From positions 47,464 through 111,463 of the IMG/VR virus record IMGVR_UViG_3300049491_001102: DNA of 64,000 nt; one strand, given 5' to 3'. Position numbers and translations under genes: made by a program. Within the stretch, counting starts at the first letter, position 1; every line of letters begins with the position of its first letter. The notes under the pieces were generated by a model. The model was given only the letters and a program-made list of their open reading frames with translations, made no database searches and was not told the DNA's origin. This document shows, in pieces, positions 46,585 through 64,000 of the stretch. Origin of the DNA: a virus.

Positions 46585-47046
46585 TTAGCCGCGGCGCAAA
46601 CGAAGGTCAAAAGAGGAAGAATCCGTAATGTACCGGTAGACCCAAGGTTTGGCGCTAATGATTGTCGCTTGCACTGGGTCGAGACCGCCGGAAGTTACAC
46701 GCAAACAACTCCATTGTTGCGTGTCCATTTCAGTGACATACCCAGACACTCGGCGACTCCAAACGGCGATTGTCGTGCCTTCATCGATGAAGGCGCTCAA
46801 ACAACACTTTCTGTGGTATACGCCGGGTGGCCCCCACTGACCTTCGTATTTGACACAGAGAGTCAGTGGGACGAGTTGGTGTGCGACTAGATCAATCGTG
46901 TACGATATCTCTTCGTAACCATTTCCTAGTGCATTAAGTGTTCTCAGGCGTATTGGGAGAACAATACCGATGTTCGTCGCCTGAAGTTTGATCCCTGGGA
47001 ATGTCCGAACTTGGCGCTTTTTTGTCGATGGCATCAATCTTATCAA
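46585..47046 (-). CDS. Hypothetical protein
   Basis: ORF in the minus-strand run. Confidence 0.45.
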   Translation of the reverse strand: MIRLMPSTKKRQVRTFPGIKLQATNIGIVLPIRLRTLNALGNGYEEISYTIDLVAHQLVPLTLCVKYEGQWGPPGVYHRKCCLSAFIDEGTTIAVWSRRVSGYVTEMDTQQWSCLRVTSGGLDPVQATIISAKPWVYRYITDSSSFDLRLRRG

Positions 47047-57473: not shown

Positions 57474-58007
57474 CTAACTGGCGACAGCGTTGCCGAGAAC
57501 ATCCAGAGAAGCACGCCGAATCTCAGACTTAGATAAAGTCAGCCACGGTGTGTAATCTTCGATGATCATTTCCGTCGTTGACTCTGCGTAGCCACTGACA
57601 TTTCGTCCTAGTCGTTTAGCAACGCGGATTGACTCACAGTACGCTTGCAACTCCCAGATCAACCGTTGTTTAGGGTTAATGACATATTGACGGCGAAACT
57701 TTGCCCCGCCAACGACTTGCTGCTGCACAAGGTGAATCCTCTCGTGCGCCAGCAATCCAGCTTTCGTCTCCAACAGTTTGCTCTCAAAGTCATAGGGCAA
57801 CATCAATTGACCCGGAAGTGTTGTTGCTACACGTGAGAACTTCTTAAATAAAATTGCCTTCTTCTTTGTTGTAATCGCGTAGTCTGCCTGTCTAAAGGCG
57901 TTGAGGCAGTAGATGAGAATGTGTTCCGCGTTCGTGATGGTGTCCAGGTACGGGTCGGCGTACATGCGCGACTTTGCTTCTTTGATGTCTAGAGCTGAGA
58001 TTGCCAT
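57474..58007 (-). CDS. HExxH zinc metallopeptidase-like protein (DUF4157-like)
   Basis: LLAHERIHLVQ...WELQAY; intact HExxH plus downstream Glu. Confidence 0.7.
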   Translation of the reverse strand: MAISALDIKEAKSRMYADPYLDTITNAEHILIYCLNAFRQADYAITTKKKAILFKKFSRVATTLPGQLMLPYDFESKLLETKAGLLAHERIHLVQQQVVGGAKFRRQYVINPKQRLIWELQAYCESIRVAKRLGRNVSGYAESTTEMIIEDYTPWLTLSKSEIRRASLDVLGNAVAS

Positions 58008-58031: not shown

Positions 58032-58056
58032 TTAATAGCTTGAGTCGAGGAAAGTT
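58032..58056 (-). promoter_or_regulatory. Phage promoter motif copy 3
   Basis: AACTTT-CCTCGACTCAA-GCTATTAA. Confidence 0.65.
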
Positions 58057-58360
58057 AATCCTCGACCTTCGTACACACGCCATAGATGTGCTCCAATGGA
58101 CACCACCCGTTGGCACGTCCGCGTGCGTTCTTAATGAGGTACTTACCGTCTTTAACCTCAGCAACGTAATGCAGGTACTCATTCCCAGCGACGAGGCACA
58201 ACACAACGTCGCCGACCTGCACCCGCGGCGTAAAACTCGTCGGCTGGATTGTGCACAGTTGGCCTGACCGGATCTCCGGCTCCATGGACCGACCCTGAGG
58301 TCGGCATTTCACCGTCCGCCCTTTCTTGAGAAGCTCGATTAGTGGTGTGGCCCATCCCAT
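58055..58360 (-). CDS. Stand-alone S24/S26-family peptidase
   Basis: GRSMEP (catalytic Ser)...VGDVVL...YLH; no HTH or TM segment. Confidence 0.8.
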   Translation of the reverse strand: MGWATPLIELLKKGRTVKCRPQGRSMEPEIRSGQLCTIQPTSFTPRVQVGDVVLCLVAGNEYLHYVAEVKDGKYLIKNARGRANGWCPLEHIYGVCTKVED

Positions 58361-58376
58361 TGTTTGCTCTCCGTAG

Positions 58377-58401
58377 TTAATAGCTTGAGCACGAAAAAGT
58401 T
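58377..58401 (-). promoter_or_regulatory. Phage promoter motif copy 4
   Basis: AACTTT-TTCGTGCTCAA-GCTATTAA. Confidence 0.65.
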
Positions 58402-58422
58402 CACCGCAAGATGTTGGAGAAG

Positions 58423-58484
58423 TTTTTCACGCTGTGTACACAAAGCGCGCAAATTAGTGCGCGCAAAAGATTACACGTGAAAAA
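58423..58484. promoter_or_regulatory. Nested inverted repeat in the divergent intergenic region
   Basis: TTTTTCACG...GCGCGCA-AATTAG-TGCGCGC...CGTGAAAAA. Confidence 0.6.
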
Positions 58485-58510
58485 GTTTCCACAATGTGTA
58501 CAACAAGGTT

Positions 58511-59158
58511 ATGGCCGCCACTACAAATAACCGTGCCGTCTGGCCGTTCTCGGAAAACTTCCCAAACTGGTACCTATCCCGGAAAGGTTATCGGCGATGT
58601 GACCCCACCAGTATTCGCAACATTTTGCAGAGTCGCCGACCATACCATCCCGTAGACCTGAAAGAGTTAATGCGTATTCTACAGATAGAATTTCACGCGT
58701 TCTTACCGGGAACACGTGGTGGAACCTTTTCTTACTGCCAAGGTGTCCGCATTGACAGCAAAGCGAACAAAGTCAAGTTGTCCTACAATTTCGCCGAAAC
58801 TGAAGATGTATCCCGCTTTGTCGTAGCTCATGGGTTGGCGCACGTGGTCGCCCACGGGCGACAGCCTGACATTCCTGTACTAAAAGATTGCCACCACATT
58901 AACTGCTATCTCCGGTGCGACCACACGGAGTTGCACGTCAGCGCGAACTGGTTTGCACGCGAGCTTCTAATCCCGAGCGATGAAGTCGTGGACATAGCTA
59001 AGCACCATGCCGAACTTCCAGGGTTTAAGTACAGCCAAGAAAGTAAACATGGTGTGTACGGGTTGGTCTCAACTTTAGTGCCAAAGATAGCCAAAATGTA
59101 CAATGTACCAACAGGGTGCGCACAAGCGGCTCTAGACCACAACATGGACAAACTATGA
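58511..59158 (+). CDS. ImmA/IrrE (Peptidase M78)-like protein, catalytic Glu replaced
   Basis: PVDL...RFVVAHGLAH...ANWFARELLIP...IAKMYNV. Confidence 0.8.
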   Translation: MAATTNNRAVWPFSENFPNWYLSRKGYRRCDPTSIRNILQSRRPYHPVDLKELMRILQIEFHAFLPGTRGGTFSYCQGVRIDSKANKVKLSYNFAETEDVSRFVVAHGLAHVVAHGRQPDIPVLKDCHHINCYLRCDHTELHVSANWFARELLIPSDEVVDIAKHHAELPGFKYSQESKHGVYGLVSTLVPKIAKMYNVPTGCAQAALDHNMDKL

Positions 59159-59718
59159 GTCATAACAGTGGACCTGCCCCAAAGTGGTTCGAACTCCGAG
59201 CGCAGACTGACCCCTGCACACCACAGGATGTCCTCACATTGTGCACTCGTGACCCGGGGTCCCCAGTTCCCATCGCTGAGCTAGCAGACACCCTAAATAT
59301 CGCCGTCTACGCAACCGCGATCCGGTACCCAAGCGACATCAAGTGCATCCACTCCATTTTCGGGGTCCTGGAAGGAACCCATTACGCCGGCGTCTGCCAC
59401 CTCACCAACCACGATGCGGTCACAACCCGGCGCCACATCGCCCACGGGATTGGCCACATCTTCCGTGGGACTACGGGCATTCCCCACCTCGTACGCTGTG
59501 AGGGCGACGCCGAAACATCGCCTGCCCACCAGTTCGCACTGGGGCTGCTGATGCCCGAAGACGAGGTTCGCCAAATCATCCACATCGGCATCGAAACACA
59601 GGTCGGGGGTGCGCGCATCATCACGGAGGTGGCTCGCCGCTACGAAGTCCCACACCGGGATGCCCAACTCCATGTCTTCAACCTACTGACCCGCTGGTTT
59701 TCCGATGCCAAAGTGTAA
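59155..59718 (+). CDS. Second ImmA/IrrE-like protein, catalytic Glu replaced
   Basis: PVPIAELADTLNI...IAHGIGH...AHQFALGLLMP...VARRYEV; ATGA overlap. Confidence 0.78.
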   Translation: MSHNSGPAPKWFELRAQTDPCTPQDVLTLCTRDPGSPVPIAELADTLNIAVYATAIRYPSDIKCIHSIFGVLEGTHYAGVCHLTNHDAVTTRRHIAHGIGHIFRGTTGIPHLVRCEGDAETSPAHQFALGLLMPEDEVRQIIHIGIETQVGGARIITEVARRYEVPHRDAQLHVFNLLTRWFSDAKV

Positions 59719-60025
59719 ACCATGTATGTACGTCGTGTGCTGTGACACGGTTGGACAAATCGGTGTTCTTAGACCGTGGGGAGAATTTTCGCAGATTAAA
59801 AAGCACAAGATACGACTGTTCCGAAAACAGGAAGCAGTGGCAGAAGCAGTGAGACAGTCTATGGGTGTACTGGCGGCGTTTCAACCATTCTATGTTCGCC
59901 GTGTGCGACGTTCCGAGCGAAAACAGCATAAACAGGCATTAGACGGACGTATGCCATTTTCAAACTTTACACCTGCGCTACAATCCGACGTAGTAATAAG
60001 AGTTATTCACATACGTGAAGATTGA
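59705..60025 (+). CDS. Array paralogue 1
   Basis: YVVC...L...GEF...LFRKQEAVAEAVR...FYVR. Confidence 0.7.
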   Translation: MPKCKPCMYVVCCDTVGQIGVLRPWGEFSQIKKHKIRLFRKQEAVAEAVRQSMGVLAAFQPFYVRRVRRSERKQHKQALDGRMPFSNFTPALQSDVVIRVIHIRED

Positions 60026-60028
60026 AAC

Positions 60029-60451
60029 ATGTCCAAACGTAAACAGCCACTATACGTTGTCTGCTTTGAGTTGGCAGACGGAACCATCTCTACTCTTAAA
60101 ACACACGGAGGATTTGCTATTAGCAATGTTTACCCAGAATTGTTCCTACACAAAGAGGAAGCCGAAGCAGAAACTGTTCGATTCGCACTCGTGAACGCGG
60201 GTAAGGGTAAGTTCTATACACGTCGCACGCACAAACGTGGGGACCAAACACCACGCAAACCTATTCCTGCACTTGAATCGCAAGGATCTGGCATCAAATG
60301 TGCGCGTATAGATCTGCTCATAATGGACGATAAAATCGACAACAAACTGCCGAGGGCCTTAGCTAAGCATATAAACATGATGTCTGTGTACGCGGTAAAA
60401 CCTGGAGATATCATAAAAATTCTTCCTAAAACCATTGTCCATGAAGACTAG
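60029..60451 (+). CDS. Array paralogue 2
   Basis: YVVC...GGF...LFLHKEEAEAETVR...FYTR. Confidence 0.75.
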   Translation: MSKRKQPLYVVCFELADGTISTLKTHGGFAISNVYPELFLHKEEAEAETVRFALVNAGKGKFYTRRTHKRGDQTPRKPIPALESQGSGIKCARIDLLIMDDKIDNKLPRALAKHINMMSVYAVKPGDIIKILPKTIVHED

Positions 60452-60671
60452 GAGAAATCCTCTTTTTACCGTTAACTGCACGTGGAGAAACCAAGACTAC
60501 GTTCTCCACATTAACGGACACTTTACACAATTTGGCAGTGGCCAACTATTTCATACGCGTGAAGAGGCGACAGCACGACTTGTTGCTGTCGCGCTAACCA
60601 GGGATTCCAACGAAGGTGAACTCTACGTAAAAGAGGTCACAAAGCCAAAGAGACGAAATGACAGACCCTAA
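60441..60671 (+). CDS. Array paralogue 3
   Basis: FTV...VLHINGHF...LFHTREEATARLV...LYVK. Confidence 0.75.
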   Translation: MKTRRNPLFTVNCTWRNQDYVLHINGHFTQFGSGQLFHTREEATARLVAVALTRDSNEGELYVKEVTKPKRRNDRP

Positions 60672-60918
60672 CGGATCAGGAAGCTTCTATGCCATATATC
60701 TCATATGGCAAGATACAGCGCTTGTACTGTGCAAAGACGGAAAATGGATGCCGGAAACTTTTGATAAAAGACTGTTCTACAACCGTGAAGAAGCGGTTGC
60801 AGAAACCGTCCGCCAAACGATGGCATCTGATATGACAAACAAAAAGTTCATCATTCGTAAAGTTGCCAGTGCCGAGCTACCAGTTGGTATTAATCCTGCA
60901 CTATGGAAGCAAACGTAA
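60658..60918 (+). CDS. Array paralogue 4
   Basis: YAI...VLCKDGKW...LFYNREEAVAETVR...FIIR. Confidence 0.75.
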   Translation: MTDPNGSGSFYAIYLIWQDTALVLCKDGKWMPETFDKRLFYNREEAVAETVRQTMASDMTNKKFIIRKVASAELPVGINPALWKQT

Positions 60919-61130
60919 AATATGTCATTTGTTACGAAATTGACAGTATGGAGCACGTACTAAGCTCTACCGGACGATTTGTCATCGCCAGTCCATATAT
61001 ACTGATTTTTAACAATGAAGATAGCGCACAAACTGAACTCATCCGAATAGTACTAGCGACCGGCACAACAGAAGGGTGTCAGTTCTACGTGCGCAAAGCT
61101 ACAGAGGATGAAATTCATGGTCGGTGCTAA
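60903..61130 (+). CDS. Array paralogue 5
   Basis: YVIC...VLSSTGRF...IFNNEDSAQTELIR...FYVR. Confidence 0.75.
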   Translation: MEANVKYVICYEIDSMEHVLSSTGRFVIASPYILIFNNEDSAQTELIRIVLATGTTEGCQFYVRKATEDEIHGRC

Positions 61131-61504
61131 GCCAAAAGACCGTAACAGACTGGGTGACCGCCCGCGCTGAGAACTCTCCCCCAAAAATCACAACCATGAC
61201 CGGCATCCATCCAGACACAGAGTTCTACGTCGTTCGCTACATCGTCAGCACGGACAAATACCCTGGCAATCCCTTTGAGCTCTGCCAAAACGGGGAGTTC
61301 TACAGCGTAACCGAAGCCATTCGACCCATGGACGCCTCCGGTCGATTCGTTCAGATCTTCGACACTGAAGAAGAGGCCCTTGCGGTCATTGTTCGCTTTG
61401 TGCTCACCAACCCACCAGTTCCCGGCAAGAAGTTCTTCACCCACAAAGTCCGCTGGGGTGACATCACTGGTGAGCCTACAACCCCGCGCTTCCCTTTCGG
61501 CTAG
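61124..61504 (+). CDS. Array paralogue 6
   Basis: FYVVR...ELCQNGEF...IFDTEEEALAVIVR...FFTH. Confidence 0.75.
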   Translation: MLSQKTVTDWVTARAENSPPKITTMTGIHPDTEFYVVRYIVSTDKYPGNPFELCQNGEFYSVTEAIRPMDASGRFVQIFDTEEEALAVIVRFVLTNPPVPGKKFFTHKVRWGDITGEPTTPRFPFG

Positions 61505-61571
61505 ATAACTAAAAATAGATGACCCAAACGATACGTTGATTCCGTTCCCGTTGACGAATTGTGGAATCCAA

Positions 61572-61925
61572 ATGGCGAGTCTTAAATCAGAACGAGAACT
61601 CTTCGTCGTGCGAGGCCGAATAGCCGCCAATACCGTGGTACTGCACAACGATGGGAAATTTTATCGACCTAGCCCGCGCGCTCGAATTTTCTTTACGCTA
61701 GAAGATGCAACTGCTGAACTTGTTCGGGAAGCATTAACTAACACATGCGGTCTGTACGAGGATCTACAGGTCTACCAAACAACCGTAGTGGAAATCTCAA
61801 GTTGGGCACAATCCCCACACGAGTCCACTACCATCGAGTACATAGAAGGTGGACCGATAAAGCCGCGCAAAATCGACATCGATATGGAACAGTGGGATCC
61901 ACTTAGGTGCCCTGTATATGAATGA
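61572..61925 (+). CDS. Array paralogue 7
   Basis: FVVR...VLHNDGKF...IFFTLEDATAELVR. Confidence 0.75.
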   Translation: MASLKSERELFVVRGRIAANTVVLHNDGKFYRPSPRARIFFTLEDATAELVREALTNTCGLYEDLQVYQTTVVEISSWAQSPHESTTIEYIEGGPIKPRKIDIDMEQWDPLRCPVYE

Positions 61926-62175
61926 ACAGATCTTTGTTGTCTGCTGCGTTAATGAACAACTCGTACTTGAACTGGCGACCAACGGACACTTTTACGAGCC
62001 AAGTCAACACGCCAGACGGTTCCGTACCCACGAGGAGGCAACGGCAGAACTTGTCCGGCAAGTCCTTAGATGCGAACCGATCGGGTTCAAGTTTTTCGTG
62101 CAAATGCTAACCCTGCAAGAAATCCTTGGTCGTATCACGGCGACGAACCATCCCCCCAATAACGTCTGCCAATGA
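61918..62175 (+). CDS. Array paralogue 8
   Basis: FVVC...ELATNGHF...FRTHEEATAELVR...FFVQ. Confidence 0.75.
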   Translation: MNEQIFVVCCVNEQLVLELATNGHFYEPSQHARRFRTHEEATAELVRQVLRCEPIGFKFFVQMLTLQEILGRITATNHPPNNVCQ

Positions 62176-62453
62176 CGACACCAACCACAACTCCTAAGTT
62201 CTTCGTGGTGCGCTACAACATTCGCCGCGTTTATTTTGAGCTCGCCGTCGACGATACATTCCGCGCTCCGGGTAAAAACTCAAGACGCTTTGATACTGAA
62301 GAAGAGGCCACGGCAGCACTTGTTCGTCATGCACTCGCAAACCCTAATGTGACTGACAAGAAGTATTACGTGCACCAACCAGGACACCCCGAATACATCC
62401 GCGTCTACGACCCATGGTTTCCAACCGCAACCAAATCACCAAATAACCCATGA
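62172..62453 (+). CDS. Array paralogue 9
   Basis: FVVR...ELAVDDTF...FDTEEEATAALVR...YYVH. Confidence 0.75.
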   Translation: MTTPTTTPKFFVVRYNIRRVYFELAVDDTFRAPGKNSRRFDTEEEATAALVRHALANPNVTDKKYYVHQPGHPEYIRVYDPWFPTATKSPNNP

Positions 62454-62716
62454 CCTACCACTCCACGGTGACAAAGCGCTTGATCGTGTGCGCGACCGTA
62501 TCTCGCAAAACGTACATTCTCGACAAAGACGGACAGTTCGGCCCAACAAGTGCATCCGCCAAGATTTTCCTGGATGAAGAAGAAGCAAAGGCAGAACTCG
62601 TCCGCCAGTCCCTCATCACCTGGACACCACACGCCCAATTCTATCTCCGAACCATCGATATAAACGCGCACTTCTTTCTTCTCGCGCAGGCAAAAGATGA
62701 CGACCCCAAACCCTGA
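62450..62716 (+). CDS. Array paralogue 10
   Basis: LIVC...ILDKDGQF...IFLDEEEAKAELVR...FYLR. Confidence 0.75.
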   Translation: MTYHSTVTKRLIVCATVSRKTYILDKDGQFGPTSASAKIFLDEEEAKAELVRQSLITWTPHAQFYLRTIDINAHFFLLAQAKDDDPKP

Positions 62717-62954
62717 CGATCGCATCTTTGTTCTACACGTCGAGTGGCAGGGCAATGTCCTAAAGGACGATACGTCCACCCCGGTATTCGAAACGGAAGA
62801 CGAAGCGATGGCCGAACTCGTGAGGCTATCCCTCCATTGGAACACACCAGACATTAAGTTCTCGCTGCACACCATCCGCCGCGAAGACTATTGCCCAAAA
62901 ACTATTGAGCAAATCCTTTGCCCACCCGGGATGACCACCGATGACGACACGTGA
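62697..62954 (+). CDS. Array paralogue 11
   Basis: FVLH...VFETEDEAMAELVR...TPDIKF. Confidence 0.75.
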   Translation: MTTPNPDDRIFVLHVEWQGNVLKDDTSTPVFETEDEAMAELVRLSLHWNTPDIKFSLHTIRREDYCPKTIEQILCPPGMTTDDDT

Positions 62955-63165
62955 CCTGGATGAGCGTGCGTTCGTGATTCGGATGGACGTGCGTGGCGAA
63001 ATCCTTGAACTCGATGACGAAAACGAGTTCTTCGAGCCAAGTCCGTTCGCGCAGCTTTTTGATACCGAAGATGAAGCAACCGCAGAAGTTGTTCGCCTCA
63101 TCCTCGACTGGGCAACCCCAGATATTCGGATTTACGTGCACCCCGTCCGCCTCAAAGACTACTAA
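62941..63165 (+). CDS. Array paralogue 12
   Basis: AFVIRM...LFDTEDEATAEVVR...TPDIRIYVHPV. Confidence 0.75.
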   Translation: MTTRDLDERAFVIRMDVRGEILELDDENEFFEPSPFAQLFDTEDEATAEVVRLILDWATPDIRIYVHPVRLKDY

Positions 63166-63198
63166 CCGTGCAACGCTTTCTTTTCGAACCAACAAAAG

Positions 63199-63444
63199 AT
63201 GACAGCCCAAAACCATAACGAGCAGGCATTCGTGATCTGCATGGAAATACGCGATATTATATACATGTTTAATACGGATGACTATTACTCCTTTCCTGGA
63301 CCTACTACACGTATTTTCAGCACTGAAGATGAAGCAACCGCGGAAACCGTCCGCTTACTATTTCAGTGCACAACCCCAAACACCAAGATTTACGTGCACC
63401 CGGTTTCTCGCAGTCAATATTTGCACTGGGGCGTCACCCAGTGA
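63199..63444 (+). CDS. Array paralogue 13
   Basis: AFVICM...IFSTEDEATAETVR...TPNTKIYVHPV. Confidence 0.75.
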   Translation: MTAQNHNEQAFVICMEIRDIIYMFNTDDYYSFPGPTTRIFSTEDEATAETVRLLFQCTTPNTKIYVHPVSRSQYLHWGVTQ

Positions 63445-64000
63445 ACGTTCCCCGGCTCCCACGGCGCGGCCGAATCTAATCTTCGTAGTCTTGCGCGCTT
63501 GTCGCTTTTGCGCCCCAAGCAGTGCAAGAAATCCCGGAAATCTTCCCAGCTCTCGTCGACCCGCAAGTGCACCGGCCATTCCCATATTGGGGGGATCGTG
63601 CACCCCGGGCCAAACCACTCGCGAACCCCCGCGTTCGCCCGCGCCCACATATTCTTCCACGCCCGATACTCGCTCGACCCCCCGTCGCTCCCAACATGCT
63701 CCCCATGCTTGGTGAGCCACACCTTCGGCACCAACGCCGCCGCCCGATAGCGTAACCGACACCCACAACACGTCCTCGCCCCACTCAACAGGTGGTCCCT
63801 CCGGGCGAATGTCTCCTGCCCGCAGTCGCAGATGCATCGCCAAACTCGGCTTCGCCGAACGACGGCGGCTGTCGCCGCGAAGGCGGTCAAGTAGCCGAAC
63901 TGCTCGCCGGTGATGTCGCGATTGCGCAGGTGGTACGGGAGCGGGAGTCGTGGCGGTGGCTTTGGCTTGGCAGGGGTGGTGGCTGTTGTTGGTAATGAGG
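63414..64000 (-). CDS. Degenerate HNH-endonuclease-like protein, 5' end beyond window
   Basis: Frame open to the window edge (RDITGEQFGYLTA...CICDCG...CCGC...EYRAW...PGNVHWVT); homologous to 41681..42298 but lacks RC.NP/YGGRGI. Confidence 0.7.
   Translation of the reverse strand, partial: SLPTTATTPAKPKPPPRLPLPYHLRNRDITGEQFGYLTAFAATAAVVRRSRVWRCICDCGQETFARRDHLLSGARTCCGCRLRYRAAALVPKVWLTKHGEHVGSDGGSSEYRAWKNMWARANAGVREWFGPGCTIPPIWEWPVHLRVDESWEDFRDFLHCLGRKSDKRARLRRLDSAAPWEPGNVHWVTPQCKY

Follow-up and report, generated by a model that had tools for sequence, protein, structure and literature searches.

Peptidases of the M78 family act as switches that turn signals of DNA damage or infection into the induction of prophages and integrative and conjugative elements (ICEs), or into expression of the cyclic-oligonucleotide-based anti-phage signalling system (CBASS) and other defence operons. 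The present analysis concerns two adjoining genes, A and B, of a phage represented by a 111,463-bp IMG/VR virus record (IMGVR_UViG_3300049491_001102); coordinates refer to the right 64 kb of this record (64,000 nucleotides), called the window. By sequence and predicted structure, the two products are stand-alone relatives of the repressor-cleaving zinc peptidases CapP, ImmA and IrrE that lack a GAF domain, and both have exchanged the catalytic Glu of the HExxH motif for Gly. That they serve as non-catalytic binding proteins is given an even chance.

The described systems differ from this pair in several respects. CapP, the CBASS-associated M78 peptidase of Thauera sp. K11 (PDB 7T5T), bears the catalytic Glu97/98 and a third zinc ligand, Glu129, followed by a C-terminal GAF domain with a published groove for single-stranded DNA (ssDNA), and it is encoded in a defence operon beside a CapH-like helix-turn-helix (HTH) gene. 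The phage proteins have Gly in place of the catalytic Glu, His (A) or Thr (B) in place of the third ligand, neither GAF domain nor groove and no such neighbouring gene, and they possess instead a conserved N-terminal P-x-W...R...C-x-P motif. IrrE/PprI of Deinococcus (PDB 3DTI, 8SLN), a catalytic enzyme with a GAF domain that is stimulated by ssDNA and cleaves DdrO, is likewise unlike A and B. Similar in form is ImmA (ICEBs1 and phage ImmA/ImmR), a short stand-alone M78 protein of similar size that is also carried by mobile elements, and the Atlas clusters nearest to A and B bear the name ImmA/IrrE family; however, ImmA has an HExxH motif, cleaves the adjacent ImmR and belongs to temperate elements, whereas A and B have lost the Glu, lack an adjacent repressor gene and occur in a genome in which no integrase was detected. 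Proteins of the type of PrpR/RamB of Mycobacterium tuberculosis (PDB 6CZ6, 6D2S) have about 480 residues, with an N-terminal HTH, a C-terminal DUF2083/Fe-S/coenzyme A (CoA) domain and neither motif His, while A and B are short (215 and 187 residues), stand-alone and retain both His residues. Since the M78-like domain of PrpR has been published as non-catalytic (PMC6765138), dead M78 domains are already known as a kind. Particular to A and B are the short, stand-alone, GAF-less CapP-like form with both His residues kept, the clade-specific N-terminal Cys motif, and the fact that a single phage has two of them leading an array of paralogues.

Fold and family membership

The two genes are as follows.

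58511..59158, plus strand: gene A, 215 residues, M78 fold; start most likely ATG 58511
59155..59718, plus strand: gene B, 187 residues, M78 fold; start most likely ATG 59155

Translated from ATG 58511, the product of A is identical to the database protein P0001 (215 residues). The start of B overlaps the TGA stop of A as ATGA; its longest frame begins at an alternative start, GTG 59116, and the length of 187 residues from ATG 59155 is near the 183 residues of P0002, the sole outside relative of B. Membership of the M78 family is indicated by several comparisons. A scores 27.9 bits against Pfam PF06114 (Peptidase_M78; COG2856), above the cut-off of 22, and a precomputed PF06114 annotation is present on P0002. 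A profile built from A, B and P0002 matches CapP (7T5T) with an expectation value (E) of 3.2e-6 and places HGxxH in register with HELGH. Both proteins fall among M78 (ImmA/IrrE) clusters of the ESM Atlas at 0.96, and the Atlas model of A aligns at a template modelling (TM) score of 0.66-0.77. An AlphaFold model of B, made from a three-row alignment with a predicted local distance difference test (pLDDT) of 70.8, retrieves CapP, IrrE, PprI and M. tuberculosis PrpR as the top-ranking structures in Foldseek. The range of CapP aligned to this model, residues 6-208, spans the peptidase domain as well as the HTH-like linker and leaves the GAF domain outside. A GAF domain is thus absent, as neither protein is long enough for one (187-215 residues against about 290 for CapP) and the model of B ends at CapP residue 208; no other Pfam domain was found in either.

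Loss of the catalytic Glu and a possible metal site

The Glu of HExxH is the general base of these enzymes, and the E98Q variant of CapP fails to cleave CapH (10.1101/2022.04.27.489752, PMC13228613). In A the motif reads AHGLAH (nucleotides 58826-58843; residues H107, G108 and H111) with Gly codon GGG at 58832-58834, and in B it reads AHGIGH (59440-59457; H97, G98 and H101) with GGG at 59446-59448, each codon being a single transition from GAG. With the conserved LL[IM]P as the reference for counting backwards, the position of the third ligand is occupied by His142 in A (HVSAN), compared with Glu in CapP (EAQAD), and by Thr121 in B (TSPAH), with Glu120 just before it. As Gly is without a side chain and B, in addition, without the third ligand, canonical zincin proteolysis by either protein is judged very unlikely from these residues. 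The original prediction had placed two M78-fold proteins here, reading HGLAH and HGIGH for HExxH and HVSAN and TSPAH for the usual ExxAN; the two adjoining plus-strand open reading frames lie where it put them, the Pfam match of A, the CapP profile match, the Foldseek ranking and the Atlas clusters bear out the fold, and the motif substitutions, the altered third ligands and the loss of the general base from both proteins are all correctly described.

The remaining residues hint at what the site may have become. The His pair, together with His142 or a conserved Cys (C30 or C127), may hold a metal in a closed structural site rather than an open catalytic one, as suggested by the strict retention of the pair and the candidate His and Cys residues nearby. 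A has a Cys/His-rich loop (C127, H128, H129, C132, C136 and H138) and an N-terminal motif running P18-x-W20...R24...C30-x-P32, the latter shared by B. In the profile alignment, C127 of A and a Cys of P0002 align on the cysteine-switch residue Cys113 of CapP, a segment that B lacks, and Cys115 of B sits in an 'RC' common to both phage proteins.

Rarity of the HGxxH form

The frequency of such motifs was gauged in two samples. Every Pfam M78 match was collected from 61 prokaryote genomes and, with one weak match to another zincin family removed, 66 remained: 55 with HExxH, one with HALGH, and 10 long PrpR/RamB-like proteins without any HxxxH. HGxxH was found in none of the 56 matches outside the PrpR-like group. 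In a metagenome scan whose patterns explicitly admitted AH[GD], the 80 best confirmed loci were read, of which 77 encoded HExxH and three HDxxH, again with no HGxxH. Once the long PrpR-like proteins are set aside, the two samples amount to 136 other M78 domains, all without HGxxH, a count to be read with the caveat that Pfam scoring favours canonical motifs and that the metagenome figure covers the best-scoring loci only. Loss of the Glu with both His residues kept is uncommon among short M78 proteins, and the Gly form was seen nowhere else in these samples.

The HALGH protein (L154; G043:C1:4746487-4746987) belongs to a bacterial genome and keeps the third-ligand Glu, as do the three HDIGH proteins (L187, L208 and L210) from metagenome contigs. 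Proteins of 470-600 residues that resemble PrpR/RamB and are without HxxxH at the motif position (L090-L119, L121, L125, L128, L132, L136, L139, L140, L144, L151 and L175) make up most of the highest-scoring Pfam Peptidase_M78 matches in the sampled bacterial genomes, so that a large share of what Pfam names M78 is non-catalytic.

Relatives and origin of the pair

The clade is very small. An exhaustive phmmer search with B through 1.84 billion representative proteins returned one outside relative, P0002 (183 residues, 33% identity). When the word index was searched for homologues, A and the clade profile alike retrieved nothing beyond A itself and P0002; the scarcity of relatives of A is based on this index, the exhaustive search having been run with B only. 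P0003, a near-identical form of P0002 with 186 residues, lies on a Logan contig of 17,990 bp, one of two contigs (2,695 and 17,990 bp) that encode P0002/P0003. Among 50,697 phage records, tblastn gave no match for A and, for B, only gp32 of Che9c (E 0.02); two scans of viral contigs with clade alignments yielded 56 pattern stretches each, none of them confirmed. P0002 carries the motif HDLGH and keeps the third-ligand Glu (EQEAD). Invariant in all three proteins are the two His residues of the motif and the Arg preceding it, the FA..LL.P..EV framework, and the N-terminal P-x-W...R...C-x-P motif, the last absent from all 80 metagenomic M78 relatives examined, while the catalytic position varies among A, B and P0002 as G, G and D.

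The two genes do not appear to be simple duplicates. BLASTP scores are 55.8 bits for B and P0002, 45.1 for A and P0002 and 34.3 for A and B, which share only 25% identity. Gene B (59155-59718) coincides with a sharply bounded island of high guanine-plus-cytosine (GC) content, 0.60-0.625 against 0.47-0.50 on either side, which suggests a separate lateral acquisition rather than a tandem duplication of A. Because each protein is nearer to its HDxxH relative than to the other, and because B forms such an island, a simple recent tandem duplication is unlikely and the exchange of Glu for Gly may have happened separately in each. The description of A and B as very divergent, intact paralogues thus holds for their intactness and divergence, while tandem paralogy is made doubtful by the BLASTP ranking and the GC island. 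The proposal that the same change in two divergent paralogues points to selection fares less well: with three clade members only and both Gly codons reading GGG, one step from GAG, selection is indistinguishable from a single ancestral change. Recent decay from close HExxH homologues, which the original prediction had named as an outcome that would overturn it, is not what was found, as the nearest relative P0002 is itself HDLGH.

The operon and its neighbourhood

Flanking A and B are the following features.

58055..58360, minus strand: S24/S26-like peptidase domain gene, 101 residues, stand-alone, with a GRSMEP motif and without an HTH
58361..58510, no strand assigned: divergent intergenic control region of 150 bp between the S24-like gene and gene A
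59705..63444, plus strand: array of 13 diverged paralogues of 74-140 residues that share F-x-T-E-E-E-A-x-A-E-L-V-R

A and B head a co-oriented operon of 15 genes spaced at -20 to +33 nucleotides, with overlaps of 4 to 20 nucleotides, and the first gene of the array overlaps the 3' end of B by 14 nucleotides; their predicted place at the head of an operon with 13 small paralogues is real, as judged by alignment and gene spacing. A model of the array protein (pLDDT 80.4) has a small beta-beta-(beta)-alpha-beta fold. Three members were scanned without a match to any Pfam or PHROG family, a profile of the 13 proteins together had no match among PDB sequences, and Foldseek with the model found none in the PDB, leaving the family with no convincing structural or sequence relative in these searches.

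The control region contains a direct repeat of 29 nucleotides (58417-58445 and 58479-58507), the second copy ending 4 nucleotides before the ATG of A, a hairpin GCGCGCA-N6-TGCGCGC at 58445-58464, and two TGTGTACA / TGTACACA palindromic boxes. By their sequence these elements look like operator sites. No sigma-70-like promoter for the plus-strand operon was found in the region. The S24/S26-like gene beyond it scores 21 bits against Pfam Peptidase_S24, compared with a cut-off of 23.3, and matches the NCBIfam archaeal signal peptidase I at E 1.5e-5, under the NCBIfam cut-off. Above the cut-off, the 111-kb genome has a single HTH_3 match, at genome positions 46598-46882; this gene, the only clear XRE gene of the phage (94 residues), is about 59 kb from A and B. 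Farther along the minus strand, at window positions 57474-58007, is a protein of 177 residues with an intact HExxH (HERIH), for which no Pfam, NCBIfam or significant PHROG family was found.

The phage and its source

The virus record is rated complete by CheckV, and a comparison of both ends of its 111,463 bp found no terminal repeat joining them. It encodes a portal, a tape-measure-like tail protein and an XkdF-type protease, together with replication and repair proteins that include a family-A DNA polymerase, a DnaB-like helicase, RecA, SbcCD-like proteins and a gp32-like protein, and no tyrosine integrase was detected in the genome. From these structural genes, its own replication genes and the lack of a detected integrase, it is probably a virulent tailed phage. 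The phage RecA (L007:17469-18692, minus strand) is full-length (Pfam 409 bits) and shares 50-61% identity with RecA proteins from diverse bacteria, mostly Pseudomonadota, matches so spread and distant that RecA names no host. A further gene of the phage, L008:18596-19990 (plus strand), specifies a putative metallopeptidase of the DUF2201 type that has a VWA-like domain.

The same sequence is present at 38x depth in a freshwater-sediment metagenome, and the Logan assembly made independently from that sample is identical, so sequencing error is no concern for the motifs of A and B. A freshwater metagenome from a second study holds identical fragments of the phage, with the motif codons of both genes lying outside them. 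No RNA runs were among the listed sequencing runs containing phage sequence. No related phage was found in viral contigs by way of the portal or of a neighbouring protein of 361 residues, and no close relative was found in GenBank phage records, in which the portal has only distant matches at about 33% identity or less. The last 600 bases of the window (63400-64000) form a second GC-rich island (0.59-0.67); a minus-strand Cys-rich open reading frame within it runs off the contig end, and the independent Logan assembly stops at the same base as the contig.

A binding role and its alternatives

In the published model of CapP with CapH, CapH lies with its C-terminal dimerisation helix against the peptidase domain and with its HTH in contact with the GAF domain (10.1101/2022.04.27.489752, PMC13228613). 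By analogy with this grip of the peptidase domain on the dimerisation helix, the favoured partner of A and B would be an XRE-type regulator, whether of the phage itself, of the host or of a resident element, bound without being cut, although that the target is a repressor is a tentative proposal and, taken by itself, improbable. A dead copy without a GAF domain could still grip a CapH-like helix and would either break the repressor dimer uncleaved or cover its cleavage site, and A and B might then act as non-proteolytic anti-repressors or as blockers of cleavage. The open frames at 25% identity, the ATGA coupling and the overlapping packing of the operon argue for long-term maintenance of both genes, and a precedent for a non-catalytic M78-like domain exists in M. 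tuberculosis PrpR (PMC6765138).

Several points weigh against a binding role of this kind. No XRE gene lies beside A and B and the scanned neighbours have no HTH family, unlike the adjacent HTH partners of ImmR/ImmA, DdrO/IrrE and CapH/CapP. Without a GAF domain, half of the published CapH-binding surface is missing, as is the ssDNA groove. B scores 20.7 bits against PF06114, just below the cut-off of 22; the invariance of residues across the clade carries little weight because only three members are known; and a binding role is read here from sequence and models. A bolder version is considered distinctly unlikely: here the two proteins would be dead mimics, made by the phage, of CapP- or ImmA-type sensor peptidases of the host, binding the matching XRE repressor (CapH, ImmR or a prophage CI-like protein) without cleaving it, perhaps with each copy adapted to a different target.

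Unlikely, too, is that A, B or both are partners of the 13 array proteins, as antidote, chaperone or assembly platform, in the manner of the ImmA-type antitoxins of toxin-antitoxin systems. All of these genes share one tightly overlapping operon, with B running 14 nucleotides into the array, and the first three array proteins are basic (pI near 10); yet neighbourhood alone is weak evidence, two M78 genes face 13 very diverse small proteins, and none of the 80 metagenomic loci with M78 relatives encodes the array family. Phage genomes quickly purge dead genes, which counts against A and B being decaying, functionless relics of once-active ImmA-like peptidases. The loss of both the catalytic residue and the third ligand, the near absence of relatives in public data and the possibly recent arrival of B, marked by its GC island, would fit such decay, but the frames are intact over 187-215 codons and coupled, the fold is confidently recognisable with both His residues and the framework kept at 25% mutual identity, and the nearest relative has also departed from HExxH (to HD) while remaining intact, so that there is small probability in this explanation.

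The Cys and His residues raise the question of metal, redox or small-ligand sensing on an M78 scaffold, as in the PrpR domain that holds CoA beside an Fe-S cluster. A carries a Cys/His-rich insert, D-C-H-H-x2-C-x3-C-x-H-x3-H, between the two motif helices, the N-terminal Cys is invariant in all three clade members, and PrpR supplies a precedent (PMC6765138). Such sensing is nevertheless improbable to a high degree, as the insert is not present in B, neither protein has a DUF2083 or Fe-S domain or a fused HTH, and no output domain is evident. Lowest in probability is continued hydrolysis, through a non-canonical base or on a non-peptide substrate. Both His residues are kept, A has a possible three-His site, and some natural HDxxH proteins (P0002, L187, L208 and L210) have their third ligand intact; against this, Gly lacks a side chain with which to activate water, the third ligand is missing from B as well, neither protein has a compensating acidic residue adjoining the motif, and exchange of the Glu for Gln is enough to abolish cleavage by CapP.

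Meaning for the M78 family

At present the value of the pair is that of a lead: a well-documented and, as judged from its sequence, probable pseudo-enzyme pair in an orphan phage. If A and B were indeed dead mimics of host sensor peptidases, they would uncouple the sensing of DNA damage from the induction of a defence operon or rival prophage, or would inactivate a repressor non-proteolytically, and this would represent a pseudo-protease principle of anti-defence or anti-repression not yet described for M78. Given the place of M78 peptidases as switches, a phage with two copies devoid of both catalytic activity and a GAF domain would be an obvious suspect for interference with such a switch by binding alone, and A and B would add a stand-alone, phage-borne form to the non-catalytic M78 domains already known.
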